A DNA stretch of 64,000 bases from a virus (IMGVR_UViG_3300011116_000922:32001-96000), one strand, 5' to 3'; shown: positions 20,618-37,260, counted from the stretch's first letter. Translations and numbers: made by a program. Notes: generated by a model not told the origin, from the letters alone.

Positions 20618-21307
20618 ATGAGCCGACTAGTGATTAAGTTCCCAACGCGGAACCGCCCTGATAAATTCAAAGCCGTTTTCACCCGATACCAAACTTTCTT
20701 AAGCGGACAGCACGATGTTCGTTTCATCATCACGATGGACGAAGACGATGCCACCATGAACAACCCGGAAATGCACCAGTGGATTTCCACTCGCGCACGG
20801 AACGCACAGATTGAGTGCTTCTACGGGCAGTCCAAGAGCAAGATCGAAGCCTGTAATGCCAACCTAGAAGGCGTGGACGGCGATGTGCTGCTGCTTGCGT
20901 CTGATGACATGGTGCCCGTGCAGATGGGTTACGATGAGATTATCTTCAAGTGCTTTGAACACGCATTCCCTGATTTTGATGGTGCCATCAAGTTTTGGGA
21001 TGGGCTGCGCCCCAAGGAAGATCCCCTGATGACCTTGATGGTCATGGGGTTCCCCCTGTACAAGCGGTTTGGATATGTGTACAATCCTGAATACAAGTCC
21101 CTGTACTGCGACAACGAGCAGACACAGGTGTGTGCCGCGCTGAACAAGTTGCGCCGCTGCGACATGTGCATCGTGCAGCACCAGTGGAGTGGTGAGCCGT
21201 GGGACGAACTCCATGCAAGAAATGAGAACGCAGAAATGTACGGTGTGGACGGGGAGACATTCAAGAGGCGTGCTGCTAATAAATTTTACATGGAGAATGT
21301 AAAATGA
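20618..21307 (+). CDS. GT-A fold glycosyltransferase (GT2-like)
   Basis: KFPTRNRP start, LLASDDM (xDD motif), LYCDNE. Confidence 0.75.
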   Translation: MSRLVIKFPTRNRPDKFKAVFTRYQTFLSGQHDVRFIITMDEDDATMNNPEMHQWISTRARNAQIECFYGQSKSKIEACNANLEGVDGDVLLLASDDMVPVQMGYDEIIFKCFEHAFPDFDGAIKFWDGLRPKEDPLMTLMVMGFPLYKRFGYVYNPEYKSLYCDNEQTQVCAALNKLRRCDMCIVQHQWSGEPWDELHARNENAEMYGVDGETFKRRAANKFYMENVK

Positions 21308-21945
21308 AAACTATTAGACACTATTGCAACGAATCAATTTTTGAACAGCAACTGTTCACCTATCCAAATTTGTATAGAGCAATGGTTCAACATTTTGGAA
21401 CCGGAAGTCATTTCGTGGAAATTGGATGCTGGAAAGGACAATCTGCTTCTTTCATGGCAGTAGAAATACACAATTCAAGAAAAAAAATCAAGTTCGACTG
21501 TGTGGATCATTGGTCTGATGGAGAGGGATGTCCGAATCCAACATGGATGCCCACTGATAAAACACTGTTTGAGGTTTTTTTGAGTAATACGGAAAGGGTA
21601 AACCATATCATAACTCCAGTGCGGATGCGGTCTACGGATGCTGCAAACAAATATTGGGACAACTCTCTTGATTTTGTGTTTATTGATGGCGATCATTCCT
21701 ACGAAGCATGTAAGGAAGATATACTTGCATGGCTTCCAAAAATGAAAACCGGATCCATTTTGGCAGGACATGATTACGGATGGTGTCCTGAAGTCCAAAA
21801 TGCGGTTCACGATGTTTTGGGAGAAAGAATTGAAAAAATTGAAGACCAACACGGTGTTCGATACAAGTCCTATAGCGATCCGTGGGGAGAAGGCTGTTGG
21901 ATGGTTCAAGTAACTAGGAGCGAAAATGCCAGTACCAGCAAGTGA
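21304..21945 (+). CDS. Class I SAM methyltransferase (Methyltransf_24-like)
   Basis: VEIGCWKGQS, FVFIDGDHSY and ILAGHDY. Confidence 0.85.
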   Translation: MKTIRHYCNESIFEQQLFTYPNLYRAMVQHFGTGSHFVEIGCWKGQSASFMAVEIHNSRKKIKFDCVDHWSDGEGCPNPTWMPTDKTLFEVFLSNTERVNHIITPVRMRSTDAANKYWDNSLDFVFIDGDHSYEACKEDILAWLPKMKTGSILAGHDYGWCPEVQNAVHDVLGERIEKIEDQHGVRYKSYSDPWGEGCWMVQVTRSENASTSK

Positions 21946-22567
21946 AATTCTTTTAAGCATTCTTATTCTGTCTATTCCGTCCCGAATTGAAAAAGCCTGT
22001 AATCTAATCAAGACACTTGAGGGGCAGTTGGGAGATCGGCGGTCGGTTGAGATCCTGATGTTCAACGACAACCGTTCGCAGACCATTTCCGAAAAGCGGA
22101 ATGTGCTGCTCCATGCTGCCCGTGGACAGTTCGTTTGCTTCTTGGACGATGATGATCGTGTATCAACGGATTACATCGACCAGTTGCTGACGGCAATTGC
22201 TTCGGCTCCAAAGGTGGACTGCATTTCATTTAATCAGTTCTGCTCCATTGACGGCGAACCCATGAATGTGGAATTTGGCATGGGAAATCCTCACGGAATT
22301 CTGTGGCGCGATCCCGAAAACGGTGGTATGTTGGGAGACATTAAGCGTCCTCCGTATCATATGTGCGTGTTCCGCCGTGAAATCGCACAGAGCGAGGACT
22401 TTAATCCCATGACCGGAAAGAACGGGCAGTCCCACGGAGAGGACTTTGATTGGCTTATGCGGCTGTATCCCAAGATTCAGACGGAGCATCACATTGATGC
22501 GCCTCTCCACAATTATGTTTACGATTCCAAGACAACCACTTCACTAGTACCACAGGGAAACACATGA
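21926..22567 (+). CDS. Glycosyltransferase family 2
   Basis: LSILI.SI, KRN.L...ARG, FLDDDD and GED..W. Confidence 0.85.
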   Translation: MPVPASEILLSILILSIPSRIEKACNLIKTLEGQLGDRRSVEILMFNDNRSQTISEKRNVLLHAARGQFVCFLDDDDRVSTDYIDQLLTAIASAPKVDCISFNQFCSIDGEPMNVEFGMGNPHGILWRDPENGGMLGDIKRPPYHMCVFRREIAQSEDFNPMTGKNGQSHGEDFDWLMRLYPKIQTEHHIDAPLHNYVYDSKTTTSLVPQGNT

Positions 22568-23277
22568 AGATTCTTCTAAATTATGCAAGCGGTGACAAGT
22601 TCAAGCACTCTCAAGTTCACAACAGCCAATCAGGGCTAGCAGCAGGATTCAATGTCATCTATCAGATGAGCGATGGCGACATTGACCGCAACTTCAAGAC
22701 CGAAAACCAAGGCATCCTGAAGGAGCGGCGCGGCGTGGGATACTGGCTGTGGAAGCCGTATTTCGTGGATCGTCTTATTTGGACAATGAGCGAAACCGAT
22801 GTACTGTTCTATGCGGATGCAGGATCGTATTTCGTGAAGCGCATGGATCCAATTTTTGAGGCTATTCAAAAGGACAGCAACGGCGTACTGGCATTCAATA
22901 TGTCCGGTGGGCACACCGAAAAGCACTGGACAAAGCGGGATGTGTTCCGTACCATTGGGGCAGAGACTCCCGACTACACCGATACTCCGCAGCGCATGGC
23001 AAGTTTCATGGTGTTCCGTGGAACTGCATTTGCAAAGGCACTGGTTCGTGAGTATTTGAATCTGTGCTGCAACCCCCATCTTGTAACGGATGATCCCAAT
23101 GTGGACGGATGGGTGGAACCGGGATTCCAAGACAACCGACACGATCAATCTATTTGGAGTGTCTTGACAAAGAAGCACCGGGTTGCTACACTACCTGACC
23201 CCACACAATGGGGGCTGCACCACAAGGAAACCACCGAAGCCGATGTGTTCATCAACCACACGCGAGATCCCCGATGA
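22564..23277 (+). CDS. Putative GT-A glycosyltransferase
   Basis: GYWLWKP, FYADAG and RHDQS motifs; island context. Confidence 0.6.
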   Translation: MKILLNYASGDKFKHSQVHNSQSGLAAGFNVIYQMSDGDIDRNFKTENQGILKERRGVGYWLWKPYFVDRLIWTMSETDVLFYADAGSYFVKRMDPIFEAIQKDSNGVLAFNMSGGHTEKHWTKRDVFRTIGAETPDYTDTPQRMASFMVFRGTAFAKALVREYLNLCCNPHLVTDDPNVDGWVEPGFQDNRHDQSIWSVLTKKHRVATLPDPTQWGLHHKETTEADVFINHTRDPR

Positions 23278-24074
23278 AGATTGAAAAAGTCATTGTATCA
23301 ACGAATTCCAATCCGCTGTACTTTGACTTTTGGAAATCGTTTTCGTATGTGTGGAAGGAAAAGATGGGAGCCGATCCCGTCCTGATATACATCGACAAGG
23401 ATCCCCATGCTGCACAGATTGATGATCGGTGGGGTGAGGTAATCCGCGTAAAGACCGTGGATGGAGTTCCCGAATATCTGCAAACCCAGTGGTCGCGTTT
23501 TTTCTTTGCTCGTAATTTTCCTGATGCAGTCTGCATGACCAGTGATATTGATATGTACCCGCTGAACAAGCCTTACTTCATGGATGAGTTCAGTCTTGAC
23601 GGAAACTGGCATCTGCACTTGAACGGAAACGGAGTAACAGGAAAATACGATGATTGGATTACAGGAAAGTGCAATTTGACGGTTTGCTATCATGTGAATT
23701 ACGGAAAGCAGTTTCCTGCGATATTTGACATGGCAGACTCTTGGGAAGACGAGATCCGCAGACTCCATGCCATGAATCTAGGCAAGGATCAGTCACAGTG
23801 GGCAGAACACCTCAAGGGTATGGACAACTGGGGAGCAGAAGAAGACTACAGCACAGCAGTTCTTCGGAAAAAGGGTTCGGAGAATGCGCTCAAGGTGTAT
23901 GCCAAGGGGCTGTACGGACACCGATTTGATCGTTCATCGTGGGAGATATGCAGACAGGCAATGGACTCGCACAGGTTCGTTGACTGCCACTCTCTTCGTC
24001 CATTCGGGCAGAACCGAGATAAAATTCTAGAAGTGCTGTCCCACCATCACGGAGAACTAGATGATTCCATCTGA
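23274..24074 (+). CDS. Putative GT-A glycosyltransferase
   Basis: TSDIDM (DxD), WGAEE and DCHSLRP; island context. Confidence 0.5.
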   Translation: MKIEKVIVSTNSNPLYFDFWKSFSYVWKEKMGADPVLIYIDKDPHAAQIDDRWGEVIRVKTVDGVPEYLQTQWSRFFFARNFPDAVCMTSDIDMYPLNKPYFMDEFSLDGNWHLHLNGNGVTGKYDDWITGKCNLTVCYHVNYGKQFPAIFDMADSWEDEIRRLHAMNLGKDQSQWAEHLKGMDNWGAEEDYSTAVLRKKGSENALKVYAKGLYGHRFDRSSWEICRQAMDSHRFVDCHSLRPFGQNRDKILEVLSHHHGELDDSI

Positions 24075-24879
24075 CCAAATAATCAGCGGACAGAATCTTG
24101 CTGCAAAGTGCGACTATGTGTTCGCGCAAATGTGGGACACCGGATCAGGAGCAGTTCCAATTTTTGCAAAGTATGCTCCTGCTTTCAAGGGTGGAGAATT
24201 AGTGTTTTGCAAGACGGACTACATTGTTGCCCTGCACGATGTAGTGAAGGAATGTGTTCCTAGAGATGTGCCGTTCACTGTTCTGACTCACGACAGCGAC
24301 TATCCCGTTACCCAAGACATGACACAACTGTTTGCAGACAGACCCGTGAAATGGTACGGCATGAACTGCTCCACGGAAACAGCGAATCCTGTGCCTATTG
24401 GAATTGCAAACACATACTGCAATCTCACCATGAAGGGCAAGGATTTCCAAGCAGCGTCCCCTTCTAGGCTTCTGTATGTAAACCACCGTACCGAAAACTT
24501 TCCGATGGAACGCGAGTGGCTGTATCCGTACTTTTCAGGAAAAACTTGGTGTACGGTGAAGCAGCCGTATCCCAAGGGAGAGATTGCACAATACAAGCAG
24601 GAACTATTGGATCACAAGTTTGTCTTGTGCCCCCGAGGAAACGGCGTGGATACGCATCGTCTTTGGGAAGCCTTGTATTGCGGGGTGATTCCGATAGTGA
24701 AACGCCACCGCACACATCGTCCACTGGAAGGCAATCTGCCTATCATGTTCGTGGATGATTACAAGGAAGTCACGGAAGACCTATTGACTCGCAAGTACGA
24801 TGAGTTTTCATCAACCGAATGGAAGCGAGATATGCTGACTGTATCGTGGTGGATAGACAACATGAAGAAAGGACTGTAA
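24061..24879 (+). CDS. Exostosin-like (GT47-type) glycosyltransferase
   Basis: KFVLCPRGNGVDTHRLWEALYCGVIPIV. Confidence 0.75.
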   Translation: MIPSDQIISGQNLAAKCDYVFAQMWDTGSGAVPIFAKYAPAFKGGELVFCKTDYIVALHDVVKECVPRDVPFTVLTHDSDYPVTQDMTQLFADRPVKWYGMNCSTETANPVPIGIANTYCNLTMKGKDFQAASPSRLLYVNHRTENFPMEREWLYPYFSGKTWCTVKQPYPKGEIAQYKQELLDHKFVLCPRGNGVDTHRLWEALYCGVIPIVKRHRTHRPLEGNLPIMFVDDYKEVTEDLLTRKYDEFSSTEWKRDMLTVSWWIDNMKKGL

Positions 24880-25571
24880 TGCACCTTAATATACTGAACA
24901 ACCAATACATCGAAGAACTGTACACAGAATATGTGATAAAGGAGTCTTCATACTTCCAACGATTTGAAGACCTGAACGCAGTATTGAGTCCACAGGAACT
25001 CGCTGCTTACAGTCGTATGGATCCACCGCGAGTGGTTTCCATAATTGACTTTAAGGAGTGGGTAAAAAAGTACGGCATAGATCAGGGAGAAAATCTGCTG
25101 TCAACTTGCCCATCGGATCCCGAACTCAAGTACATCAAGTACAAGAATGTCACGGGGGTATACTACCCTCCCCATGATCTTCATACATTCGATGTCCCAA
25201 AGAAGGACAATGATTTTGCAATCTTCAATCAGACCATTGAGCATCTGCACACTCCGATTTTGGCAATCAATCGTATTCGTGAACACCTGAAGGACGGAGG
25301 GTATGTGTATACCACCGTGCCAACCATAAACATTCCACACCTGACACCCATTCACTTCAATGGGCTGACTCCAACTGGTCTTTGTGCCCTGATGGAGTCT
25401 TGCGGATTTGAGGTGTGTGAGTGCGGTTACTGGGGCAACAAGAAGTATATCGACTACATCTTTACGCATGGAGATTGGCCAAACTACAAACAAGTTCTTG
25501 ACGAGAGCGGAAAGTTGAAGTATGATCCGGTGTGTCAGGCACAAACATGGGTTCTAGCAAAGAAGGTATAA
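24879..25571 (+). CDS. Methyltransferase-like protein
   Basis: NQTIEHL.TP....IREHLKDGGYVY..VP; the Gly-rich motif I is not evident. Confidence 0.6.
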   Translation: MHLNILNNQYIEELYTEYVIKESSYFQRFEDLNAVLSPQELAAYSRMDPPRVVSIIDFKEWVKKYGIDQGENLLSTCPSDPELKYIKYKNVTGVYYPPHDLHTFDVPKKDNDFAIFNQTIEHLHTPILAINRIREHLKDGGYVYTTVPTINIPHLTPIHFNGLTPTGLCALMESCGFEVCECGYWGNKKYIDYIFTHGDWPNYKQVLDESGKLKYDPVCQAQTWVLAKKV

Positions 25572-25572
25572 T

Positions 25573-26274
25573 ATGCCAGTAGACATAAAAACAACCATTC
25601 TCCATTACAAGCCCCTTGCAGATCGTAAGGAAAACATGATCCGGCAGATGGAAAGGCACGACTTTACGGACTATTCTTTCTATGAAGAGTTTGACGGAAA
25701 CGAACTAGACGAAACCGTAATCCGGGCACACTATTCCGATGTTCGTGAGTTTGGAGAAGAAACTCAACACAAGGCATCTGTTTATGAGCGTTTGATTCCC
25801 GGTAGTAGCAAAACCGTGAACCCGTTGACTATGGGAGAGATATCTATTGCTACGAAGTTCGGAAAAGTATTTGAAAAATTGAGTCTGTCGGATGGAGATT
25901 ACTTTTTGATATTTGAAGATGATGTCATCCTTTGTCAGAATTTTGAAACGAACTTGACAAATTTTCTAAACGCCACACCAAATGATTGGGATGCCATCTA
26001 TTTTGGTAGCGGGGCAAATATGAAGCCTAGATCCATCAAAGACGGATGTGTTGCTTATTTGACAGATCATCCTGCTTCGCGGTGTGCGGATTCCATACTG
26101 ATAAAAAAGTCCGCTATTACTGATTTGGCTAAAACATGGTTTCCGTTTCATCTGCCTGCTGATTGGGAACTGGGATATCAACATTTTTTGCATAATCATC
26201 GTGTGTATTGGTGGGAACCTAGCCTGACTCGTCAAGGTTCGGAATATGGAATTTTCAAGAGTTCTTTGAGGTAA
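25573..26274 (+). CDS. GT25-like glycosyltransferase
   Basis: DRKENM, LTMGEISI, LIFEDD and PAD. Confidence 0.75.
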   Translation: MPVDIKTTILHYKPLADRKENMIRQMERHDFTDYSFYEEFDGNELDETVIRAHYSDVREFGEETQHKASVYERLIPGSSKTVNPLTMGEISIATKFGKVFEKLSLSDGDYFLIFEDDVILCQNFETNLTNFLNATPNDWDAIYFGSGANMKPRSIKDGCVAYLTDHPASRCADSILIKKSAITDLAKTWFPFHLPADWELGYQHFLHNHRVYWWEPSLTRQGSEYGIFKSSLR

Positions 26275-26276
26275 GT

Positions 26277-27194
26277 ATGAGTAAGCCTAAAATCAAACTG
26301 TGGTTTTCTGACATGTGGGGATACGATGAGTTCCAGTTCAACCCAATGGACAATTATTTCACGGATCTATTTTCCGCGAAGTACGATGTGGTGCTAGACG
26401 AACATTCCCCCGATCTTCTTGTATACAGTTGTTTTTCTCGAAATCATCTTAAGTACAATGGTAGATGCAAGAAACTGTTTTATTCGGGAGAAAACATCAC
26501 CCCCGCAAGCGATCCCCATCGCAAGGTAAATCCTGATTTCAACGAGTGTGATCTTTTCATGGGAAAATTTCCAACGGATGATCGCTGCTACTACCACCCG
26601 CTTTGGGTTTTGTTTGTGAATTGGTTTAATAAGACGCAGCCAAGATCGTATCCTAGTAATCCCACCTTCCATGTTGAAGCGGATTCTCTTTTGGTGGAAC
26701 GACCCTATACACCAAAGAGCAAGTTCTGCTGCTTCATCAACAATAATCCAATAGAAGATCGGGTAAACCTATTCAATGGGTTGCATTCATATAAACATGT
26801 TGACAGTTACGGTTACCTGTATAACAATGTTGGATATGCATTACGGGGATCGGAAAAGGCAAAGATTGATGTTGTCAACCATTATAAATTCACCATTGCT
26901 TTTGAGAACAGTTTTTACCCCGGTTACATAACAGAAAAATTGGTTCAACCGTATTCGGTTGGTTCGATTCCTATCTACTCAGGTGGATTAGACGAAACCG
27001 TGTTCAACAAGAAGAGTATGGTGTATCGTGGAGACTACCAATCAATTCAAGATGTGATTGATGAAGTCAAGAAGATTGACCAAAACGATGATCTGTATCA
27101 GGAATACATGAGTGAGCCTTTGTTTAATGAAAACCGCATTCCCGATTGTTTCCGTCCCGAAAATGTATTGAAATGGATAGAGGAGAGACTATGA
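26277..27194 (+). CDS. GT10 alpha-1,3-fucosyltransferase-like
   Basis: YSGEN and the GT10 signature YKFTIAFENS..PGYITEK, IPIY. Confidence 0.88.
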   Translation: MSKPKIKLWFSDMWGYDEFQFNPMDNYFTDLFSAKYDVVLDEHSPDLLVYSCFSRNHLKYNGRCKKLFYSGENITPASDPHRKVNPDFNECDLFMGKFPTDDRCYYHPLWVLFVNWFNKTQPRSYPSNPTFHVEADSLLVERPYTPKSKFCCFINNNPIEDRVNLFNGLHSYKHVDSYGYLYNNVGYALRGSEKAKIDVVNHYKFTIAFENSFYPGYITEKLVQPYSVGSIPIYSGGLDETVFNKKSMVYRGDYQSIQDVIDEVKKIDQNDDLYQEYMSEPLFNENRIPDCFRPENVLKWIEERL

Positions 27195-27982
27195 AAATTT
27201 GTTTGATAAATCAGCCTGCCGGATTGGGAGACATTTTTTACACTCAAAGAATTGGACAGCACTTCCGTTCTTTGGGTTACGAGATAGTGTGGCCCGTAAT
27301 CAAAGCATACGATTGGCTATCCAATTACATGACTAGTGAGGGGACACATTTCTTTACGGAAGACTTGCCTTTTGTTGGCATGGAACTGTATCACGGCAGA
27401 AGCCGGGAGTTGATCTTGACCGACTCCTTCTGTTACATACCACTGCGTTTTGCTAGTTTTCATCCCAACGCAGCAGGCTTGGAAATACTGGAAGCCAAAT
27501 ACGGTATGCTTAATATGCTTCCCGAAGCAAGTCGATGGGAGGAATCGTTCACATTCAAGAGGAATAGCGAAAAGGAAAAGAGCCTGTTCTATAATGTGCT
27601 TGGCTTGAAAGACGGAGAAGATTTCATCTTCAGCAACAGTTGGATTGGTTCTCCCGATGGTTTGAATATGCAGAGATTGGGACATGTCAATTTTGACAAC
27701 AAGGGAATCCGAGTAGTTGAGCATGATGCATTTATTGGTGGTGGAATAGGAACATATACGATATTTGATTGGTCTTTGGTTCTTGAACGAGCCAAGCAGA
27801 TACACACGCCAAATACCGGAATGTGCTTTCTCATAGACAGACTTGACACGCAGGCTGATAAAGAACACAAGTTCATGTATCACCGCGACAAGAACAACAG
27901 TCAGGGAAACAGCATAAACGATAATTGGAACTACACAAAGAACAGTTTGAACCCATCCAAGTGGACTTACATGGATAACTAA
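27191..27982 (+). CDS. Putative GT-B glycosyltransferase
   Basis: N-terminal GLGDIF motif and IFDW..VLE.A..IH; island context. Confidence 0.5.
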   Translation: MKICLINQPAGLGDIFYTQRIGQHFRSLGYEIVWPVIKAYDWLSNYMTSEGTHFFTEDLPFVGMELYHGRSRELILTDSFCYIPLRFASFHPNAAGLEILEAKYGMLNMLPEASRWEESFTFKRNSEKEKSLFYNVLGLKDGEDFIFSNSWIGSPDGLNMQRLGHVNFDNKGIRVVEHDAFIGGGIGTYTIFDWSLVLERAKQIHTPNTGMCFLIDRLDTQADKEHKFMYHRDKNNSQGNSINDNWNYTKNSLNPSKWTYMDN

Positions 27983-28241: not shown

Positions 28242-29465
28242 ATGAAAGAATTGTTTAGTCTTGGAAACTTGTATGTCTCTGATTTTCTTAAAGACACCGA
28301 GTCTCCCCGTGGAGAAAGAACAGAACTCAAGTTGATGCTTGAGCCGGAAACGGGTGCTGTCCGATTAGAACAGGCAGCACCACTAGATGTGATGTACGGA
28401 AAGTATTGGTATCGTTCCGGTATAAATTCTTCAATGAGAAACGAATTGAAGTCCATCGTTGACTCCATTCTTCCTCTTATGAATTTCAAGGAGAACAATC
28501 TGTGGCTAGACATAGCATCTAACGATGGAACTCTGTTGAGTTATGTCCCGAAGACTTTTATCAGGATGGGAATAGATCCGGTTGAAGACACATTCGTGAC
28601 GGAAGCCAAGCAACATGCAGATGACATTGTTCAGGACTACTTTACCGAAGCAGCATTCCGGTCATCTAGATTTGGAAATCTGAAGGCAAAGGTAGTTACA
28701 TCTATTGCGATGTTTTATGATTTGGAAAATCCCAAGTCATTCATTTCTGATGTGATGAATGTGATGGACGACAACGGAATTTGGGTTCTTCAGTTGTCGT
28801 ATACTCCACTTATGATTAAGCAACTGGCTTTCGATAACATCTGCCATGAACACATCTATTACTACTCGCTGTTCAACATCAAGAAGATGTTTGAAGAGAT
28901 GGGTCTTAAGATAATGGATGTTCAACTGAATGACACCAATGGAGGATCGTTCAGAATCTATGCCATGAAGCAGAAGGCTGATTCGGGTGTATTCTCCACG
29001 CAACCATATCGTGATGTGTGTGAATTCAGAATCAACTCTCTGCTAGAATACGAGAAGAGTTTGAACCTAGATTCCGTAGAGACATGGAATGGGTTCTATG
29101 AGCGCATCAATTCTCTGAAGGAATCGTTGGTCGGATTTATCAAGCAAGAGAAGAGCAAGGGAAAGAAGATATGGGGCTACGGTGCGTCCACGAAGGGAAA
29201 CACCCTGCTCCAATATTTTGGCTTGGATCACACCCTTGTTGATGGTATTGCGGAGAGAAGCGTTTATAAGTTTGGACTTAAGACCGTAGGAACAAATATA
29301 CCGATTTACTCCGAAGATGAGATGAGAGCGGCAAAGCCGGACTATCTACTTGTGCTGCCTTGGCACTTCATCAACGAATTTATTTCAAGGGAAGATGAGT
29401 ACCTCAAGTCCGGTGGAAAGTTGATTGTTCCCTGCCCGGAATTCAAAGTGATCTCTTTGTATTGA
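28242..29465 (+). CDS. NDP-sugar C-methyltransferase
   Basis: LDIASNDGTLL, SIAMFYD, FDNICHEH..YYS, YGASTKGNTLL and PDYLLVLPWHF. Confidence 0.88.
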   Translation: MKELFSLGNLYVSDFLKDTESPRGERTELKLMLEPETGAVRLEQAAPLDVMYGKYWYRSGINSSMRNELKSIVDSILPLMNFKENNLWLDIASNDGTLLSYVPKTFIRMGIDPVEDTFVTEAKQHADDIVQDYFTEAAFRSSRFGNLKAKVVTSIAMFYDLENPKSFISDVMNVMDDNGIWVLQLSYTPLMIKQLAFDNICHEHIYYYSLFNIKKMFEEMGLKIMDVQLNDTNGGSFRIYAMKQKADSGVFSTQPYRDVCEFRINSLLEYEKSLNLDSVETWNGFYERINSLKESLVGFIKQEKSKGKKIWGYGASTKGNTLLQYFGLDHTLVDGIAERSVYKFGLKTVGTNIPIYSEDEMRAAKPDYLLVLPWHFINEFISREDEYLKSGGKLIVPCPEFKVISLY

Positions 29466-29474
29466 AAGGACTAT

Positions 29475-29726
29475 ATGGAAACCATTGGAAATCTTGTAGA
29501 CAAGTTGAGTATCGTGAACATCCGTGTTTGGATGGAAGAAAACAAGAAGAGAGACAAGACCGCAACAGACAAGCAAATTGCAGATGCTACCCGTGTCACC
29601 AACATCTGCAATCAGCAGCGGAACGATCTGATTCAGCAGATTGATGAAACCATCAATCATCTGTTGCAGACCGGAAAACTTCAAAAGTTGTACGGTCAGG
29701 GTTCAACCAAAAACTACGAGGGCTAA
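29475..29726 (+). CDS. Small helical protein (DUF4254-like)
   Basis: ETIGNLVDKLSI...RNDLIQQID; AAGGA RBS. Confidence 0.6.
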   Translation: METIGNLVDKLSIVNIRVWMEENKKRDKTATDKQIADATRVTNICNQQRNDLIQQIDETINHLLQTGKLQKLYGQGSTKNYEG

Positions 29727-29729: not shown

Positions 29730-30644
29730 ATGGCTACACTCATAACAGGAGGAAGTGGTCTACTGGGATCTCACTTTTCTTGGGGGCTTAAGCCAACTAG
29801 AAAAGAGTTGGATCTGTTGGATTACGCTTCATTGGCTGATTACATCAAGAAAAACGATGTCACCAAGATAATACACTCTGCGGCTATAGTTGGTGGTGTT
29901 CATGCAAATACCAGTTTGATTTGTGATTTCTTTTTGGGAAATCTTGAAATGAATTCCAATGTGCTAAAGGCTTGCCGGGAATTCAAGTTGAATAACAGTG
30001 TGTTTATACTGTCAACATGTGTGTTTCCATCAGAGGCTGTTCTGCCTATCAGAGAATCGGTGATTCACGATGGAGAACCCCATCACACAAACTATGGATA
30101 TGCATACGCAAAGAGGATGCTTGAGGTCGGATCTAGAGTGTTGAAGCAGCAATACGGAGTCAATACCACTTGCTTGATACCAACAAATCTGTACGGAGAA
30201 AACGACAACCACGATCTTATGAACGGGCATCTCATTCCTAGCCTAATCCACAAGTGCTATTTGGCAAAGAAAAACAATACCGATTTTATAATTTGGGGTG
30301 ATGGAACTCCTCTTCGTGAAATAATCTATGCGGGAGATGTTGTCAGAATAATAGAACACATCAGCGAAGGACAAAATCGTGGAGTGGAATATCCGCGCAT
30401 GATTATTGTTTCTTCTTCGGTTGAGCATTCCACTAGGCAGGTAGCCGAACTCATAGCCAAGAAGATGGGATTTACTGGAAATATAGTTTTCGACACCACT
30501 CGCCCTAACGGTGCCCACAAAAAGACTTCAGACAATAGCGTACTGAGGCAGCACTTCCCGGAATTCACATGGACGGAATTGGAAAAGGGTATAGAGTTGT
30601 CCATAAACCACTTCATAAACAACTATCCGAATGTTAGAAAATGA
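29730..30644 (+). CDS. fcl: GDP-L-fucose synthase (epimerase/reductase)
   Basis: TGGSGLLG, AAIVGG, LSTC, YAYAK, NLYG..D, GHLIP and WGDGTPLRE. Confidence 0.88.
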   Translation: MATLITGGSGLLGSHFSWGLKPTRKELDLLDYASLADYIKKNDVTKIIHSAAIVGGVHANTSLICDFFLGNLEMNSNVLKACREFKLNNSVFILSTCVFPSEAVLPIRESVIHDGEPHHTNYGYAYAKRMLEVGSRVLKQQYGVNTTCLIPTNLYGENDNHDLMNGHLIPSLIHKCYLAKKNNTDFIIWGDGTPLREIIYAGDVVRIIEHISEGQNRGVEYPRMIIVSSSVEHSTRQVAELIAKKMGFTGNIVFDTTRPNGAHKKTSDNSVLRQHFPEFTWTELEKGIELSINHFINNYPNVRK

Positions 30645-31492
30645 AATCAGTAGTAATACCAACTAGAAATGATAACTATGGTTATTTTTTGACAGAAAGA
30701 ACCATTCAGTGCTTGAACAATATGGTGTCGAATTTCGATGAGGTGATAGTTGTTGATTGGAATTCGCCTGATGGTGTTCCTGCTATACGGCAAGCCATAA
30801 ACTCCATTCAGAAAACCGGGAAAATTCGGTGTATTGTTGTTCCAAAAGAAGTAGTGGAAAAACATATTCCGCATGATACAAATCCGTGTTGTGATGTGAT
30901 TGCACGGAATGTGGGAATACAGCGGGCAAGAAGCGACTGGATTCTGTCTTCAAATATTGATATATTGTGTTCGCCTTTTGACGAACGCTCTTTGTCTTCC
31001 GACACCATGTATACATCTGCGAAATATACAGTTCCCGAACATGTACATCTGCTTCACACTCTTCCTATGAGTAATGATGACAAGATGATGTTTTTGAAAA
31101 ATAACAAACAACATTTTCCGAGGATGGAACTGTGTGCAAATAGTATTCACCATAGGGATGATGTGTATTCCTTATGCACGGGATGTGGGGATTTTCAACT
31201 TGCACACCGTGATCTTTGGAATGCCATTCGTGGATATGAAGAAGCACTGCATAAGAGAGATTATGCTGACACCAATGTTCAGGTTAAGGCAGCAAACCAT
31301 CCATCTAAAAAAATCAGTCTTTTGGATGTTGATATTTTCCACATGAATCACGACACGAAGTGCCCATATTTAACAAAAGGCTCTTCTTTGGCAATGAACA
31401 AAAAGGAAGACGCTTTCGTCACCTATGCCACAACAGCCAACTCTGAAACATGGGGATTGGCTGACCACACCTTTGAGGAGATAGTGATCTGA
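30641..31492 (+). CDS. GT2-like glycosyltransferase
   Basis: RNDNYG, VVDWNS, ARNVGI.RA, NID, GDFQL and GYEE. Confidence 0.7.
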   Translation: MKSVVIPTRNDNYGYFLTERTIQCLNNMVSNFDEVIVVDWNSPDGVPAIRQAINSIQKTGKIRCIVVPKEVVEKHIPHDTNPCCDVIARNVGIQRARSDWILSSNIDILCSPFDERSLSSDTMYTSAKYTVPEHVHLLHTLPMSNDDKMMFLKNNKQHFPRMELCANSIHHRDDVYSLCTGCGDFQLAHRDLWNAIRGYEEALHKRDYADTNVQVKAANHPSKKISLLDVDIFHMNHDTKCPYLTKGSSLAMNKKEDAFVTYATTANSETWGLADHTFEEIVI

Positions 31493-31493: not shown

Positions 31494-32393
31494 ATGAACA
31501 AGTATATTGTTACAACCACAATTCATCCCCCGACAGAAGCACTTATTCGTTTTTCAAAAATGAATGATTGGAAACTGATTGTGGTGGGAGACATGAAGAC
31601 TCCACACGAATCATACAGGGATGTGAATTGTTCGTATCTGCACCCGGAGTATCAGAGCGAAAGATACAAGAAATTGAGTGATGTTTTAGGATGGAATACT
31701 ATCACTCGTAGGAATATTGGATTTGTCGAAGCGTACAATTGTGGAGCAGACATCATAGCAACTGTAGATGACGACAACATTCCATACGATTTTTGGGGAA
31801 CCAATGTTGTTGTTGGAAAAGAAGTTTTGCTTGATGTGTACGATGCATCATCGGTTGGTGTGTTTGATGCTTTGAGTGTAACAAATCATTCTAATCTATG
31901 GCACCGAGGATTCCCTACCCAAAGACTAGAAGTCAAGAACAATGTAAAATATCTTGGCAAGCATATGGTAAAGATTGATGTTCAGGCAGACCTATGGGAC
32001 GGTCATCCCGATGTTGACGGTGTTTGCAGACTGATTCACAAGCCAGTTGTGAAATTCAATGTCACCGAGCCGTACACATCAAATACGATAACCCCGTTTA
32101 ATACTCAAAACACTTTCTTGAGCAGAGAAGCAATCAAGGTCTTTATGGATCTACCTTTCATTGGAAGAATGTCGGATATATGGGGAGCCTATGTGTTGCA
32201 GAAGAGAATGAAATGCAATGTTGCATTTTCTCCGGCATCGGTGTATCAGGATAGAAACTTGCAAGACACCGTGAACAATATTGTAGATGAGTTGATTGGA
32301 TACCGACATAGCCACAGTTTTGTTGATGGCAAATACGAATTGCCTGATAATGTCAAGACTGCGTATGATACATACTGTGAGTGCTTTGAATAA
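31494..32393 (+). CDS. STELLO/DUF288-like (GT75-related) glycosyltransferase
   Basis: VVGD.KTP, RRNIG..A, VDDDN, W.RGFP, PDVD, FN.QNT and R.SDIW. Confidence 0.75.
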   Translation: MNKYIVTTTIHPPTEALIRFSKMNDWKLIVVGDMKTPHESYRDVNCSYLHPEYQSERYKKLSDVLGWNTITRRNIGFVEAYNCGADIIATVDDDNIPYDFWGTNVVVGKEVLLDVYDASSVGVFDALSVTNHSNLWHRGFPTQRLEVKNNVKYLGKHMVKIDVQADLWDGHPDVDGVCRLIHKPVVKFNVTEPYTSNTITPFNTQNTFLSREAIKVFMDLPFIGRMSDIWGAYVLQKRMKCNVAFSPASVYQDRNLQDTVNNIVDELIGYRHSHSFVDGKYELPDNVKTAYDTYCECFE

Positions 32394-32403
32394 GGAGAAT
32401 ATT

Positions 32404-33381
32404 ATGAAGAAAGCATTGGTTCTTGGTGGTGGTGGATTCATCGGATCACATCTTGTCAACCGTCTTAAGCGCGAAGGATTTTGGGTACGAGCGGTTGATC
32501 TAAAGTATCCCGAGTACGCAAAAACACAAGCAGACGATTTTGTCCAAGGCGATTTGCGTTCGCAGAGTCTGTGTGATTATGTGTTCGATCAGCAATTTGA
32601 TGAAGTGTATCAGTTGGCTGCTGACATGGGTGGCGCGGGTTATATTTTCACTGGTGAGAACGATGCAAATGTGATGCACAACTCTGCACTCATCAATCTA
32701 AATGTTGTTGAGAAGTGCCATGAAACAAAAGCAGGAAAGGTGTTCTATTCCTCCTCTGCCTGCATGTATCCTGCTCACAACCAAGAAGATCCCGACAATC
32801 CAAAGTGTTCCGAGGATTCTGCGTATCCTGCTGCTCCCGATAGCGAATACGGTTGGGAAAAACTTTTCAGCGAAAGACTGTTTTTGGCGTATGCTAGAAA
32901 TCATGGTCTGAATGTCAAAGTTGCCCGATTCCACAATGTCTTTGGGATTGAAGGGTCATGGGACAACGGAAAGGAAAAGGCTCCTGCTGCTGTTTGTCGC
33001 AAGGTTGCAGAAGCAGAAGACGGAACCCATATCGAAATTTGGGGTGACGGAAAACAGACTCGTTCTTTCATGTATGTTGACGAGTGCCTTGAGGCAGTTC
33101 GTAGGTTCATGGATTCGGAGTTTTCTGGTCCTGTCAATATTGGAACCGAAGAAATGATCGCTATCAACGATCTTGCAGAGATGGTGATTCGTATCTCTGG
33201 AAAGAATCTAACCATCAAAAATATTCCCGGCCCAATTGGTGTGCGTGGCAGAAACTCTGATAACAAACTGTACAGAGAGAAGATTGGTTGGGAATCGAAG
33301 AAGACCCTTGAAGAAGGAATAACAACCACATTTGCTTGGATCAATGAGCAAGTAAAAGCCAAGAAGATGATGGCGGTTTAA
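32404..33381 (+). CDS. GDP-mannose 3,5-epimerase-like extended SDR
   Basis: LAADMGGAG.I, SSAC.YP, YGWEK, RFHN, EKAPAA.CRK and GVRGRNSDN. Confidence 0.85.
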   Translation: MKKALVLGGGGFIGSHLVNRLKREGFWVRAVDLKYPEYAKTQADDFVQGDLRSQSLCDYVFDQQFDEVYQLAADMGGAGYIFTGENDANVMHNSALINLNVVEKCHETKAGKVFYSSSACMYPAHNQEDPDNPKCSEDSAYPAAPDSEYGWEKLFSERLFLAYARNHGLNVKVARFHNVFGIEGSWDNGKEKAPAAVCRKVAEAEDGTHIEIWGDGKQTRSFMYVDECLEAVRRFMDSEFSGPVNIGTEEMIAINDLAEMVIRISGKNLTIKNIPGPIGVRGRNSDNKLYREKIGWESKKTLEEGITTTFAWINEQVKAKKMMAV

Positions 33382-33382: not shown

Positions 33383-34399
33383 ATGAATACAAAGACATCT
33401 CTGACCGTTGGATTCTATTCCAACCAACTGTGTGTTCGTGGCACAGAAGTTGCCATGTATGATTATGCCCACTACAATGAAACTCTGTTGGGAAACAAGT
33501 CTGTAATTTTCTATAACGAGGACTCGCCCAACAACGATTCTAATGCTGTAGAAAAATTTCGTGCTAGGTTTCCGGTTGTTGGATTGCGGGGAGCCTTTTC
33601 TAGCGGTGCAAGAAGCGCAAACGGAAATACTGTAAACGCTCTACTGAATGATGCGATTTTATCAAATAATATTGATGCCATTTACATCATCAAAAACGGA
33701 GAAAAGAGTGACGGTATTTTACCCACTGCTTGCAAAACTCTTGTTCATGCAATAGGAACTCCCGATCCAAGTGAAAAGCACGGAGACAGATATGCTTATG
33801 GATCGTATTGGTTGAGCGAGGAGTTTTCAAAAAACACCATTCCTGCCGTTCCATATATGATAGACCTTCCCGAAGAAACCGGGAACTTGAGGAGCGAATT
33901 AGGGATACCGGAAGACGCTGTGGTGTTTGGAAGAAACGGCGGAAACGATACTTTTGATCTTCCTTGGGCAAAACAAGTTGTAGCAGAAGTTGTTAATCGG
34001 GTATCAGACTCTTATTTTATATTTCAAAACACCGACAAGTTCTACGATCATCCAAGGGTGATTCATCTTCCCAAAAATGCAGACATGAAATACAAGGTGA
34101 AGTTTATAAATTCGTGTGATGCAATGCTACATTGTCGTTACATTGGCGAAAGTTTTGGTTTGTCTTGCGGAGAATTCTCTGTTCGAAACAAACCAGTAAT
34201 CACATGGAACGGCTCTCCACAGAGAAATCACATATTTGTGTTGGGGGACAAGGGCATATACTATGACACCGCACAGGAGTTGTTTGAAATACTAATGACA
34301 TTCGACAAACAAGATCCCGCTGTGGATTGGAATGCATATGCCGATTACTCTCCCGAAAAGGTAATGGGTGTATTCAAATCTGTTTATTTAGAAGAGTGA
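33383..34399 (+). CDS. GT4-like (GT-B) glycosyltransferase
   Basis: RGTEVAMYDYA, CDAMLH.R..GESFGL...E and KPVIT. Confidence 0.75.
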   Translation: MNTKTSLTVGFYSNQLCVRGTEVAMYDYAHYNETLLGNKSVIFYNEDSPNNDSNAVEKFRARFPVVGLRGAFSSGARSANGNTVNALLNDAILSNNIDAIYIIKNGEKSDGILPTACKTLVHAIGTPDPSEKHGDRYAYGSYWLSEEFSKNTIPAVPYMIDLPEETGNLRSELGIPEDAVVFGRNGGNDTFDLPWAKQVVAEVVNRVSDSYFIFQNTDKFYDHPRVIHLPKNADMKYKVKFINSCDAMLHCRYIGESFGLSCGEFSVRNKPVITWNGSPQRNHIFVLGDKGIYYDTAQELFEILMTFDKQDPAVDWNAYADYSPEKVMGVFKSVYLEE

Positions 34400-34428: not shown

Positions 34429-35054
34429 ATGGACAACAAACACAAATTATACGAGCAGATCCGGCGTTCTAATGTTAAGACCGTATTGGACATTGGTGCT
34501 AATGTTGGTCAGTTTGCGATGGAAATAAAAGCAAACTTTCCACACCTGTTTGTCGTTAGCATTGAACCAAATAGAGACTGTGAACCGTATTTGAAATCAT
34601 ACGGATTGAACTACATCATCTGTTGTCCATCTGATCGCAAAACTACTAAAAAATTCTATAGAACAAAAAATAATCGTGTTGGTACTGGGTTTTCTTTGTC
34701 AAAGAAAATACCTGTCATTATGATGGAGATAATCTAGTGGTCGAAGACATGCAAACCGACACTATGGATTCTATTTTAGATCAGAGTTGGCTTGGGAATC
34801 TGTCGTTTGATCTTATCAAATTAGACACTCAAGGAAGCGAACTTGACATCTTAAAAGGATGCCCCAAAACTATGTCCAATTGCAAAATGATTCTTGCAGA
34901 GACAGATGTTGGAAACTATAACCAAGGATGTCCTTCGCAGGCTGAAGTAATAGATTATCTATCGACAGTCGGATTCCGTGTTCTAGAAATAATAGAAGAC
35001 CAAGTATCAGACGGTAAAATTATTCAGCAAGACATATTGTTCATCAAGGACTAA
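34429..35054 (+). pseudogene. FkbM-family methyltransferase split by a -1 frameshift near 34700
   Basis: LDIGANVGQF in the first frame; KENTCHY...DLIKLDTQGSELDILKG in the -1 frame. Confidence 0.8.
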
Positions 35055-35057
35055 CAA

Positions 35058-35999
35058 ATGAAAATGCTAGTGACAGGTGGGGCGGGGTTTATTGGATCGA
35101 ATCTTGTTGATCGGCTAATTGCAGAGGGTCACGAAGTAGTAGTGATCGACAACGAGTCATCAGATTCTAACGAACAATTCTATTGGAATCCCACAGCACA
35201 GAACTATAAGTACGACATCAACGATTACACGATGGTACGCAAACTGTACGAGGGTGTGGACACTGTGTTCCACCTTGCTGCGGAAGCCCGTATTCAGCCG
35301 TGTATCGAAGATCCCGTAAAGGCTGTGGAAGCCAATATGCTTGGTACCGCTAGTGTGTTGCAGTGTTCCCGTGTATGTGGTGTGAAGCGGGTAATCTACT
35401 CGTCCACATCGTCTGCCTACGGACTCAAGAACACTCCTCCCCTTGTGGAAACCATGCCCAACGATTGCCTGAATCCGTATTCGGTCAGCAAGGTAGGCGG
35501 CGAGGAGTTGTGCAAGATGTACTCCAAACTGTACGGGTTGGAGACAATCGTATTCCGCTACTTTAATGTGTACGGAGAGCGTCAGCCCCTGCGTGGTCAG
35601 TACGCGCCAGTGATTGGTATTTTCCTGCGTCAACGAGCCGCAGGAGAACCCATGACGATTGTGGGTGATGGCGAACAACGCCGCGACTTTACCCATGTGA
35701 GTGATGTGGTGGAAGCCAACATCAAGGCATCACAGTTTACTGCCCCTGAATACAATGTCATAGACAACGGTTCGTGTCAGACCTACAGAGGATGGGAATG
35801 GGGTCAGGTGTACAATATTGGCACGGGAACCAACCATTCCGTGAATCAAATTGCTGAACTTATGGGAGGAGAAACTGTAAATATTCCTCCCCGCGCAGGC
35901 GAATCGCGTATCACTCTTGCAAACGCAAAAAAGGCACAAGAACATTTTGCGTGGACTGCGAAGATTCGTCTTGAAGATTGGATTGCCGAGCATAAATAA
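35058..35999 (+). CDS. NAD-dependent sugar epimerase (GalE/WbpP-like)
   Basis: TGGAGFIG, HLAA, YSVSK (YxxxK), RYFNVYG and GDGEQRRDF. Confidence 0.9.
   Translation: MKMLVTGGAGFIGSNLVDRLIAEGHEVVVIDNESSDSNEQFYWNPTAQNYKYDINDYTMVRKLYEGVDTVFHLAAEARIQPCIEDPVKAVEANMLGTASVLQCSRVCGVKRVIYSSTSSAYGLKNTPPLVETMPNDCLNPYSVSKVGGEELCKMYSKLYGLETIVFRYFNVYGERQPLRGQYAPVIGIFLRQRAAGEPMTIVGDGEQRRDFTHVSDVVEANIKASQFTAPEYNVIDNGSCQTYRGWEWGQVYNIGTGTNHSVNQIAELMGGETVNIPPRAGESRITLANAKKAQEHFAWTAKIRLEDWIAEHK
35991..35998 (+). promoter_or_regulatory. Putative late promoter (CATAAATA)
   Basis: Late box upstream of the RBS of the GT2-TPR gene. Confidence 0.55.
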
Positions 36000-36018
36000 C
36001 GGTACAAGGAGATCGTGA

Positions 36019-37260
36019 ATGTCTACAGTATGCCTGTCAATGATCGTCAAAAACGAAATGCATATCATCCAAGAGTGCTTTGATTCTGTCTATAAGTACA
36101 TCGACTACTGGGTGATTGTTGATACTGGTTCCACCGATGGAACACAGGAATTCATCAAGAAGTACTTTGCCGAGAAGGGCATTCCCGGAGAACTGATTGA
36201 GCGTCCGTGGGTGGGTTTCGGTCACAACCGCAGCGAAGCCCTTGATCTCTGCACAGGCAAGGCAGACTACGCTTGGATGATTGATGCGGACGACAAGATT
36301 GTTGGCGACTTCAAGTTTCCAAACAACAAGAACCTGACGGTTGATGCGTATGCCCTGAAGTGCGGACGCGACCAGTGCATTTGGTGGCGCAACCAAATCT
36401 TCAAGACAGGAATTGGTTGGAAGTATGTTGGTATTCTCCATGAGTACGCACACTGCGAAAAGCAGCCTCTTGTTCAGGAAAAGATTGACGGCAACTACCA
36501 CCTAGAGGCTCGTACACTAGGAGCGCGTAATGTCAACATCACACCCGTTGAAAAGTACTCCAAGGACGCAGAACTTCTGCTTGAAGCCCTCAAGACTGAA
36601 CCGGGCAATACCCGTTACCAGTTTTATCTTGCTCAGTCTTACTTTGATTCTCAGCAGTGGGACAAGGCTACAGAAGCGTATTACAAGCGCGTGGAGATGG
36701 GCGGTTGGGAAGAGGAGTGCTACTACTCGCTGTTCCGAGTTGCCCTGATTGCTATGGCACAGGAAAAGGAGTGGCCCGTCATTCAGCAGAAACTGCTTGA
36801 TGCCTACGACTACCGTCCGTGCCGTGCTGAACCCCTCCATGCCATTGCGCGTACCCTACGCATGATGGGTCGCCCTCGCGCTGCGTATATGTTTGCCAAG
36901 GAAGCAGCCAACATTCCGTTCCCGCAGCAAGACATCCTGTTCATTGACACCAATGTGTACACTTGGATGGCACTGGACGAACTTGCGGCTACTGCCTTCT
37001 ATGTGCATGACTACAAGAACGGCTTTGCTGCTGCGGATTTCCTGCTCAAGCAGAACCGCCTTCCCCCAACGGAAATTCAGCGCGTTCAGCAGAACCACGC
37101 TGCGTACCGTGACAAACTGGAAGAAGTGCAGCGTATGCAGACCGGACAGCCGGGACAGTTCCCCATTCCCGCAATCCCCGCCGTTCCGCCTCCAGTAGTG
37201 CAACAAAAAATTGCCTACATACCTCCTAGAGCGAACCGCTTTAAGACGAGGAAAAAGTAA
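36019..37260 (+). CDS. GT2 glycosyltransferase with C-terminal TPR repeats
   Basis: CLSMIVKNE, VDTGSTDGT, IDADD and LHE; TPR-like RYQFYLAQSYFD and RAEPL. Confidence 0.9.
   Translation: MSTVCLSMIVKNEMHIIQECFDSVYKYIDYWVIVDTGSTDGTQEFIKKYFAEKGIPGELIERPWVGFGHNRSEALDLCTGKADYAWMIDADDKIVGDFKFPNNKNLTVDAYALKCGRDQCIWWRNQIFKTGIGWKYVGILHEYAHCEKQPLVQEKIDGNYHLEARTLGARNVNITPVEKYSKDAELLLEALKTEPGNTRYQFYLAQSYFDSQQWDKATEAYYKRVEMGGWEEECYYSLFRVALIAMAQEKEWPVIQQKLLDAYDYRPCRAEPLHAIARTLRMMGRPRAAYMFAKEAANIPFPQQDILFIDTNVYTWMALDELAATAFYVHDYKNGFAAADFLLKQNRLPPTEIQRVQQNHAAYRDKLEEVQRMQTGQPGQFPIPAIPAVPPPVVQQKIAYIPPRANRFKTRKK

Follow-up and report, generated by a model that had tools for sequence, protein, structure and literature searches.

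Freeman et al. 2023 (Cell Host Microbe) reportedly found that phage-encoded transferases glycosylate the virions of the mycobacteriophages Che8, Corndog and Myrna; these systems are said to consist of two to four transferases that sit beside structural genes, in phages of hosts of Gram-positive type. In aquatic T4-like phages, clusters of sugar genes have been seen since 2005 and labelled "LPS (lipopolysaccharide) genes" without test, among them the 24 genes of P-SSM2 (PMC1079782), the clusters of pelagimyophages (PMC7029224), and the 22 genes of S-SCSM2R, including 13 for glycosyltransferases (GTs; PMC12801897). In chloroviruses and the fibrils of Mimivirus, virus-encoded cytoplasmic sugar synthesis leads to methylated glycans with fucose or rare sugars on virion proteins (PMC9614988). 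Here we describe a large glycan biosynthesis island at positions 20618-37260 of a 64,000-nucleotide stretch of viral DNA (IMGVR_UViG_3300011116_000922:32001-96000; this whole stretch is the window in what follows), and weigh what its product is attached to.

We read the island, whose genes are numbered g01 to g22, as the variable cassette in a cytoplasmic glycosylation system that is encoded by phages throughout the clade. One or more structural proteins of the phage would be the likeliest acceptor, a reading that we advance tentatively. It is favoured over remodelling of the host envelope because of the type of transferase that g22 appears to encode, the conserved late-type promoter box in front of this gene, and its overlap with d1, a gene for a fibre-like protein. 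The clade thus offers a sharper, testable handle on such clusters, in the form of a conserved protein-type glycosyltransferase with a late-type box beside a fibre-like gene.

A clade-wide cassette between conserved ends

The window is cut from a complete IMG/VR virus record of 147,410 bp that has direct terminal repeats, and corresponds to its bases 32001-96000. Pfam matches place gp45, gp44, gp62 and regA at 17640-20596, and the island begins directly downstream. The order of replication genes (gp45, gp44, gp62, regA ... gp43, UvsX, gp41, gp61) is T4-like, with DNA polymerase B, a RecA-like protein, a DnaB-like helicase, the GDP-mannose (GDP, guanosine diphosphate) 4,6-dehydratase gene gmd, a primase-like gene (weak matches) and ThyX at 43-52 kb. 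The nearest cultured phages are Methylophilales phage Melnitz, marine cyanomyophages and Pelagibacter phage Mosig, to which gp44 is about 56% identical; megablast of the region against the cultured-phage collection gave no DNA-level match. By its genes, the phage is a T4-like (Straboviridae-type) aquatic myophage of a freshwater and river clade that has no cultured member.

The island spans 16.6 kb and contains 22 co-directional open reading frames (ORFs) on the plus strand, which correspond to 21 genes, g19 and g20 being one broken gene (Table 1). After refinement, in which five starts were shifted to the first ATG abutting the preceding stop, neighbouring genes either overlap by 1-20 nt or are separated by 1-48 nt. 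An original prediction, made from the sequence alone, had described a tight, co-directional run of about 20 genes after regA with an AT-richer centre, and both features are borne out: GC content is 0.38-0.44 at 25-35 kb against 0.50 genome-wide, and GC at third codon positions is 0.36-0.56 in the island centre against 0.56-0.67 in core genes. Its count of four methyltransferases and three nucleotide-sugar enzymes of the short-chain dehydrogenase/reductase (SDR) family also agrees with ours, while its roughly 12 glycosyltransferases shrink to nine glycosyltransferase-like genes with some evidence, plus one GT75 mutase; the remaining four genes are of no assigned function.

The island is not a chimera or an assembly artefact, because an independent assembly from a separate study, a 12.4-kb contig, spans 20882-32992 and bridges the drop in GC at about 25 kb. 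River-metagenome contigs are 100% identical to the island, and public runs from nine studies, none of them RNA, contain the stretch or parts of it. In three other assemblies an additional base at 34699/34700 would bring g19 and g20 into a single frame; judged by these sequences, this FkbM gene is broken only in the present record, by a 1-nt deletion. A near-identical strain from another study (run X2) is represented by a contig that joins 35056 to 35979, so that g21 is absent and g22 retained; the same strain has about 316 extra bases between g11 and g12 (at 28113-28116).

Relatives were gathered by a gp44 pattern scan that confirmed 596 IMG/VR stretches, from which we kept 80 with gp44 70-94% identical. 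Every kept relative that extends past regA has an island there, and four long contigs allow the complete island to be compared. The shared order runs regA, g01, g03, a variable stretch, g21, g22, d1, dUTPase, UvdE, and on to the polymerase. The distance from the start of g01 to the end of g22 is 9.1-18.1 kb in the four relatives against 16.6 kb here, and from the end of regA to the end of g22 it is 7.5-18.1 kb among 11 complete islands. Identity among relatives is 68-89% for g01 and 72-87% for g21. In the closest relative the core proteins are 91-96% identical, g05, g06, g08 and g09 are 27-47% identical, and g12-g17 are without counterpart.

The original prediction had also proposed comparing island content among relatives. 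The 354 ORFs of 30 islands form 112 protein clusters, of which 58 are confined to a single island, and cassette content differs even where the clamp loader is 93% identical. The variable parts in relatives encode UDP-galactopyranose mutase (GLF; UDP, uridine diphosphate), nucleotidyltransferases, SDRs, GT25, GT10, GT32 and WavE. As judged from gene content, the island is clade-wide and hypervariable: its ends (g01 and g03; g21, g22 and d1) are conserved and its middle is swapped, the pattern of a cassette exchanged between conserved flanks, as in bacterial O-antigen loci.

Some relatives (L092/L093, L094, L095 and L096) carry genes for a RuBisCO-large-chain-like protein (E 4.7e-37), a 3,4-dihydroxy-2-butanone 4-phosphate (DHBP) synthase (E 3.8e-72), a haloacid dehalogenase (HAD) hydrolase and UDP-galactopyranose mutases. 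These genes hint at further unusual sugar chemistry.

The g22-d1 pair and the acceptor of the glycan

A profile of g22 built from 25 homologs matched, among PDB sequences, GmaR (2e-11), SunS (1e-9) and ThuS (5e-9), and no other GT below 0.01. The AlphaFold2 (AF2) model (predicted local distance difference test, pLDDT, 86.6) has strands and helices at residues 1-165, helices at 176-375 and a disordered C-terminal tail of about 37 residues. In a Foldseek search with this model, the top six matches are SunS or ThuS, near full length at E 1e-15, with TarS, TarP and RmlT next at 1e-6; the template modelling (TM) score against SunS and ThuS is 0.56 over about 395 aligned columns. The segment D89-A90-D91-D92, a DxD motif, is invariant in the 25 homologs and lies opposite the "idad" segment when GmaR and SunS are aligned to it. 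Because the solved transferase relatives glycosylate proteins or peptides, g22 looks like a protein- or peptide-directed glycosyltransferase of the SunS/ThuS/GmaR type. The family has more than 4800 metagenomic homologs. In the cultured-phage collection, tblastn found it only in Tunturi_5, where the homolog adjoins a tail-fibre block, in PaBG, in uncultured huge phages and in a few short Listeria or faecal records; neither g22 nor d1 has a tblastn match in any cultured cyanophage or pelagiphage.

The protein modified by g22 need not belong to the virion. It could be a host surface protein such as pilin, flagellin or S-layer, or a non-structural phage protein, with the rest of the island building an unrelated glycoconjugate, a free oligosaccharide or a small molecule. 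Flagellin is the substrate of GmaR, to which g22 is closest in sequence; g22 has a promoter box of its own; the near-identical strain that lacks g21 keeps g22, which is modular behaviour; and MtdL-type mutases and C-methyltransferase families serve glycosylated natural products too (PMC9937993). The window, however, shows no genes for the biosynthesis of a scaffold or aglycone, and in all relatives the variable genes lie between the g01/g03 and g21/g22 pairs, an arrangement suggestive of a single functional unit. We regard such a target as quite improbable.

The timing of expression bears on the acceptor. The canonical T4 late promoter, TATAAATA, has two copies in the window and none in the island, while the genome has 22 copies of CTAAATA, of which 13 precede the start of a gene on the same strand by no more than 60 nt; several of these belong to the minus-strand late block. 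The late motif of this phage is likely [C/A]TAAATA rather than the T4 sequence. Three late-type boxes had been proposed in the original prediction: two are genuine and conserved among relatives (20113 and 35991), and the third (28155) is not a match. A [C/A/T]TAAATA box lies 41-47 nt upstream of regA in 37 of 39 distinct relatives, and the box at 20113 could drive regA plus the island. Before g22, five of 10 loci, the present one among them, have a [C/A]TAAATA box at -27 or -28, and a sixth has one at -56; the upstream sequence is unrelated in two of the box-bearing loci. Sigma-70-like promoters and intrinsic terminators in the 19.5-39.4 kb region do not rise above shuffled sequence. Late transcription of the island is, on these motifs, plausible.

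In all relatives that reach that far, d1 directly follows g22, and it diverges faster than the genes on either side (49-53% identity against 77-82% for g22). Its alleles come in a 140-aa and a 151/152-aa form. Its density of Gly-x-Thr (GxT) triplets is the second highest in the genome. In one relative (L090:10001-11656) the d1 domain forms the N terminus of a collagen-like protein of 551 aa, where GxT accounts for 54% of the triplets, in GPT and GNT repeats; a BppU_N baseplate likeness is a weak atlas lead only. All 207 homologs of d1 are unnamed, none occurs in cultured phages, its own genome holds no paralog, and a dedicated search for longer fused forms found none. We take d1 to be a probable virion or fibre module and a candidate acceptor.

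The d1-collagen fusion of the relative is reminiscent of glycosylated exosporium collagen-like proteins. The collagen-like protein of the phage itself (52317-54542) was considered as a BclA-like, Thr-rich acceptor and rejected: its repeats are charged (GEK/GER), 2% of its triplets are GxT, and it has no real similarity to d1.

Glycosylation of phage protein might then proceed as follows. From its own late-type promoter, g22 would attach the initial sugar to a Ser, Thr or Cys residue in a phage protein, with the overlapping, Gly-x-Thr-rich d1 or other fibre proteins as candidate acceptors. This sugar would be extended by g01, g03 and the variable soluble transferases (GT10, GT25, GT2, GT47-like and GT4-like), and three O-methyltransferases would cap the glycan. 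Since the middle of the island appears to recombine between conserved ends, close relatives would display different glycans.

Several points weigh against this reading. The virion role of d1 draws on one fusion and one weak atlas lead, its AF2 model (pLDDT 47.8) is too poor for a fold search, and Gly-x-Thr richness is common in fibre proteins, glycosylated or not. The promoter boxes are sequence matches. With its own promoter, and conserved while the rest varies, g22 may act alone and add a single sugar, unlinked to the other transferases. The GT25 and GT10 enzymes of the island, and the WavE and GT8-type ones of relatives, are typical of lipooligosaccharide (LOS) or LPS synthesis, and the homologs of g16 and g17 in cyanomyophage clusters are read in the literature as serving host cell-wall modification. 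A virion glycan is thus a plausible prediction from the genes.

The island proteins contain no membrane segments (no 19-residue hydropathy window exceeds 1.6), and Bac_transf (PF02397), Wzy_C (PF04932) and Wzx (PF01943) have no match in the complete genome. An ORF with seven transmembrane segments at window position 63225, flippase-like at first, is an antisense frame of a 719-aa minus-strand gene. The earlier observation that flippase, polymerase, ligase and priming transferase are absent therefore holds genome-wide, the lack of membrane anchors holds for the island proteins, and the island is not an O-antigen cassette of the Wzx/Wzy or Gtr type. The conclusion drawn from it, that a lack of membrane components rules out host LPS, does not follow, as soluble or peripheral transferases could use a host lipid carrier and host export. 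Without membrane proteins the island cannot be a Wzx/Wzy or Gtr cassette that is self-sufficient, but its soluble transferases could still act on lipid-linked intermediates of the host.

LOS-type transferases, like those that extend the LPS core or O-units, are soluble or peripheral and need no membrane segment, so that the lack of such segments in the island does not count against remodelling of the host envelope. The soluble transferases would work on the cytoplasmic side of the inner membrane and modify the lipid A-core or undecaprenyl-linked O-units of the host, using GDP- and UDP-sugars made by the phage, and the products would be exported by host MsbA or Wzx, Wzy or an ATP-binding cassette (ABC) transporter, ligase and Lpt. 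With the surface changed, superinfection would be blocked or progeny kept from adsorbing again to debris and infected cells, and the variability of the island would track the strain-specific O-antigen chemistry of hosts. Classic LOS/O-antigen families are represented by GT25 and GT10 in the island and by WavE, GT32 and GLF among relatives; the low-GC centre is like that of bacterial O-antigen islands; GT75 homologs occur in many bacterial phyla, with a gene resembling GDP-mannose 3,5-epimerase (GME) within 4 kb in nine of 59 bacterial loci; and g17 and g16 have homologs in the "LPS / cell-wall" clusters of cyanomyophages. This is also the standing reading of the literature, although that literature holds no experiment behind it for any T4-like phage (PMC1079782; PMC7029224; PMC12801897). 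It leaves unexplained, however, the conserved SunS/GmaR-type g22 with its late-type box and fibre-like neighbour, and late expression in a lytic T4-like phage would allow little time for surface turnover. We consider it a strong rival, though a somewhat less likely account. If the glycan is on the host, the island would be a clear case of a lytic phage rewriting O-antigen chemistry.

The sugars could also decorate a hydroxylated base of the phage DNA to evade restriction, as in T4, RB69 or the TET-associated clusters. There are phage transferases, akin to LPS enzymes, that assemble di- and trisaccharides on DNA (10.1101/2023.12.21.572611; PMC13326640), the island lies in the replication module, and a Mom-family DNA modifier is encoded nearby (41528-42448). 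Known routes to glycosylated bases need an enzyme of the ThyA family or a C5-methylase (10.1101/2023.12.21.572611; PMC13326640), and neither a hydroxymethylase or 5-hydroxycytosine (5hoC) synthase of the thymidylate-synthase family (ThyA, PF00303) nor a C5 cytosine methylase (PF00145) was found in the complete genome; Tet_JBP (PF12851) also gave no match, in a search whose control was blank too and which is uninformative. ThyX at 51584-52312 indicates an ordinary supply of thymidylate (dTMP), and nine transferases, three O-methyltransferases and a C-methyl sugar go far beyond any known DNA glycan. DNA as the acceptor would therefore come as a great surprise.

The original proposal of a glycan on virion proteins is thus supported in part, and gains from the fold of g22, its late-type box, the d1 overlap and the lack of a known DNA-glycan route. 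In its most specific form, which we think rather unlikely as a whole, glycosylation of phage protein would mean that, in a widespread freshwater T4-like clade, fibres or tail bear an O-linked glycan that is hypervariable and specific to the strain, begun by g22 on the Gly-x-Thr fibre module and extended by swapped cassette genes, with L-fucose, L-galactofuranose or L-fucofuranose, a 3-C-methyl deoxysugar and O-methyl caps. If true, the bacterial O-antigen island would have its counterpart in a phage, and a glycocalyx-like virion surface would be seen for the first time in a tailed phage of Gram-negative type.

Predicted donor sugars and further features

The donors predicted from the genes are GDP-L-fucose-type sugars, a 3-C-methyl deoxysugar, and GDP-L-galactose that is converted to its furanose. 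This is rare chemistry for a virus, both in GDP-L-furanoses made through a GT75 mutase and in a GDP-linked 3-C-methyl sugar. The soluble cytoplasmic pathway with fucose-type chemistry (gmd, Fcl-like g14 and GT10 g09) and methylation, as originally outlined, is upheld. By homology, gmd, a bona fide Gmd with 429 bits against the 415-bit cut-off of TIGR01472, would convert GDP-mannose to GDP-4-keto-6-deoxymannose, which g14 could turn into a GDP-L-fucose-type sugar. The score of g14 against NF047922 is 191 bits against an equivalog cut-off of 500 bits, and its product could be another GDP-6-deoxyhexose, possibly a C-methylated one. The 3-C-methyltransferases of the mycarose and TcaB9 type use 4-keto-6-deoxyhexoses linked to nucleoside diphosphates (NDP), the product type of Gmd, and g12, their homolog, may put a methyl branch on C3 of the 4-keto intermediate. 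The gmd gene lies between the replicative helicase and the primase, 18 kb from g14; it is in the same place in relatives G001 and G003, and not in G002 or G004.

In a second branch, g17 would by homology yield GDP-L-galactose, and g16, only 10 nt upstream, would convert a GDP-L-pyranose (galactose or fucose) to the furanose form. The VDDDNIP segment of g16 aligns with MDDDNLP of MtdL and places it in GT75; by its relatives it is a mutase and not a transferase, though CAZy files GT75 among the GTs. MtdL interconverts the pyranose and furanose forms of GDP-L-galactose and GDP-L-fucose (PMC9937993), and we infer the corresponding activity of g16 on a GDP-L-sugar from this precedent and from the adjacent g17. 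An inference of donor or host from GT75 homologs was dropped, the best bacterial identities being 40-55% and scattered over many phyla. Finally, g21 is predicted to interconvert UDP-hexoses.

Among the other genes of the island (Table 1), g01 has homologs in 1469 representative clusters, an invariant S95-D96-D97 motif, and homologs fused to GT2, GT4, GT47 and FkbM domains. No Pfam, PHROG or PDB match was found for g04, and g05 has neither a hidden Markov model match nor a PDB sequence match. A homolog of g18, 46% identical, holds the same position in relative G004.

Table 1. Promoter boxes, island genes and associated genes in the window, with assignments predicted by homology (aa, amino acids; SAM, S-adenosylmethionine; TPR, tetratricopeptide repeat)
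Feature	Position	Strand	Evidence or remark
Late-type promoter box ACTAAATA	20113..20120	+	42 nt upstream of regA start
regA translational repressor	20156..20596	+	PF01818, E 3.8e-42; island's upstream anchor
g01, GT-A-like glycosyltransferase, family without Pfam model	20618..21307	+	phrog_14945 glycosyltransferase, E 2e-8
g02, class I SAM methyltransferase (Methyltransf_24)	21304..21945	+	PF13578, E 3.9e-20
g03, GT2 glycosyltransferase, conserved 5' end	21926..22567	+	PF00535, E 1.8e-6; cluster in 29/30 islands
g04, no assigned function, semi-conserved in clade	22564..23277	+	13/30 islands
g05, possible GT8-like nucleotide-sugar transferase (lead only)	23274..24074	+	Atlas GT8 / Nucleotid_trans clusters, score 0.95, only 140 shared features
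g06, GT47 / RXYLT1-like glycosyltransferase (C-terminal half)	24061..24879	+	PF24785, E 2e-7; PF03016, E 3e-6
g07, SAM methyltransferase (Methyltransf_23)	24879..25571	+	PF13489, E 3.6e-8
g08, GT25 glycosyltransferase	25573..26274	+	PF01755, E 8.7e-9
g09, GT10 alpha-1,3-type fucosyltransferase	26277..27194	+	PF00852, E 2.7e-20; FucT_N, E 2.7e-14
g10, no assigned function	27191..27982	+	No matches in Pfam, PHROG, PDB
g11, small ORF, 69 aa	27984..28193	+	No Pfam or PHROG match
g12, NDP-4-keto-sugar 3-C-methyltransferase	28242..29465	+	PF08484, E 7e-46; PDB 4RV9 mycarose 3-C-methyltransferase, E 5e-36; TcaB9, 1e-28
g13, DUF4254 small protein	29475..29726	+	PF14063, E 6.8e-10; family recurs in relatives' islands
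g14, Fcl-like GDP-4-keto-6-deoxymannose epimerase/reductase	29730..30644	+	Best family NF047922 GDP-L-fucose synthase
g15, GT2 glycosyltransferase	30641..31492	+	PF00535, E 7e-7
g16, GT75 NDP-pyranose mutase (MtdL-like)	31494..32393	+	PDB 7XPR / 7YUA MtdL, E 1.2e-14, residues 59-271
g17, GDP-mannose 3,5-epimerase	32404..33381	+	PDB 2C59 Arabidopsis GME, E 6e-88, full length
g18, probable GT-B (GT1/GT4-like) glycosyltransferase, weak	33383..34399	+	PF00534, E 4e-4, below cut-off
g19+g20, FkbM-family methyltransferase, split	34429..35054	+	PF05050, E 6.8e-11, second half only
g21, UDP-hexose 4-epimerase-like SDR, conserved 3' end	35058..35999	+	PDB 4ZRM, E 2e-49
Late-type promoter box CATAAATA	35991..35998	+	27 nt upstream of g22 start
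g22, GT2 + TPR glycosyltransferase, SunS / ThuS / GmaR-like	36019..37260	+	PDB profile match and Foldseek
d1, all-beta Gly-x-Thr-rich protein, 152 aa	37260..37718	+	Overlaps g22 stop
gmd, GDP-mannose 4,6-dehydratase, outside island	49095..50135	+	TIGR01472; PF16363, E 5e-121

Beyond the island, an HNH endonuclease gene at 38580-39230, preceded by a CTAAATA box, lies between dUTPase and the next conserved gene; it has no counterpart in the four relatives and is probably a mobile insertion. A SpeD-like gene precedes the Mom-family gene (E 1e-11), which relative G004 shares at 95% identity; the regA-to-polymerase stretches of the other three relatives yielded no copy of it. Inside the replication module, at 52317-56562, are genes for a 741-aa collagen-repeat protein and a Gly-x-Thr-rich 663-aa protein (54571-56562), the latter with a CTAAATA box upstream at 54540; both are probably fibre proteins.

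Comparison with known glycosylation systems

Where the glycan resides matters beyond this clade. If it is on the virion, lake phages would carry hypervariable "serotypes", which bears on adsorption, aggregation, grazing and decay, and the similar clusters of cyanophages and pelagiphages would need to be re-read. These cyano- and pelagimyophage clusters are kin to the island in that an aquatic T4-like myophage carries a large, co-directional run of soluble GT and SDR genes with low synteny. Of 51 phage records that match g17, mostly from cyanophages, the 12 best show 59-63% identity, and homologs at about 60% occur in S-SSM7, S-SCSM1, P-TIM68 and S-SCSM2R; g16 has homologs at 52% identity in the Synechococcus phages S-T4 and Sf-CH5/8, and g09 one at 34% in S-SKS1. 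Unlike the cyano- and pelagimyophage clusters, which lie in the tail-fibre "host recognition cluster", the island lies between regA and the DNA polymerase and is framed by conserved genes that include the SunS-type g22 and d1.

Like the island, the mycobacteriophages have soluble glycosyltransferases of their own and sometimes methyltransferases, and there capsid or tail proteins are decorated in the cytoplasm. The island differs in having about nine transferases together with donor-sugar synthesis, and in lying far from the main structural block; its glycosylation of virion proteins is a prediction. The likeness to the giant-virus machinery, which likewise joins nucleotide-sugar synthesis to soluble transferases and methyltransferases, is by analogy only; those viruses belong to another realm and infect eukaryotic hosts.

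At the level of single enzymes, SunS, ThuS and GmaR share with g22 an N-terminal GT-A (GT2) domain followed by a TPR-like helical domain. Identity to them is only 14-17%, and SunS and ThuS act on small helical bacteriocin precursors, for which no gene is evident here. MtdM/MtdL of A201A synthesis and Hyg20 of hygromycin A synthesis parallel g17 and g16 in setting a GDP-mannose 3,5-epimerase beside a GT75 Mn-dependent mutase (PMC9937993); those enzymes feed antibiotic synthesis in actinomycetes whereas the present pair sits in a phage glycan island, and the match of g16 covers residues 59-271 only.

The original prediction had treated an island of this kind as novel, a claim that does not survive comparison with cyanomyophage and pelagimyophage clusters, which have been reported with similar size and content (PMC1079782; PMC7029224; PMC12801897). 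The present case adds a location behind regA, a frame of conserved genes that includes a SunS-type enzyme and d1, a measure of how far the cassette turns over, and furanose and C-methyl donors as predictions.

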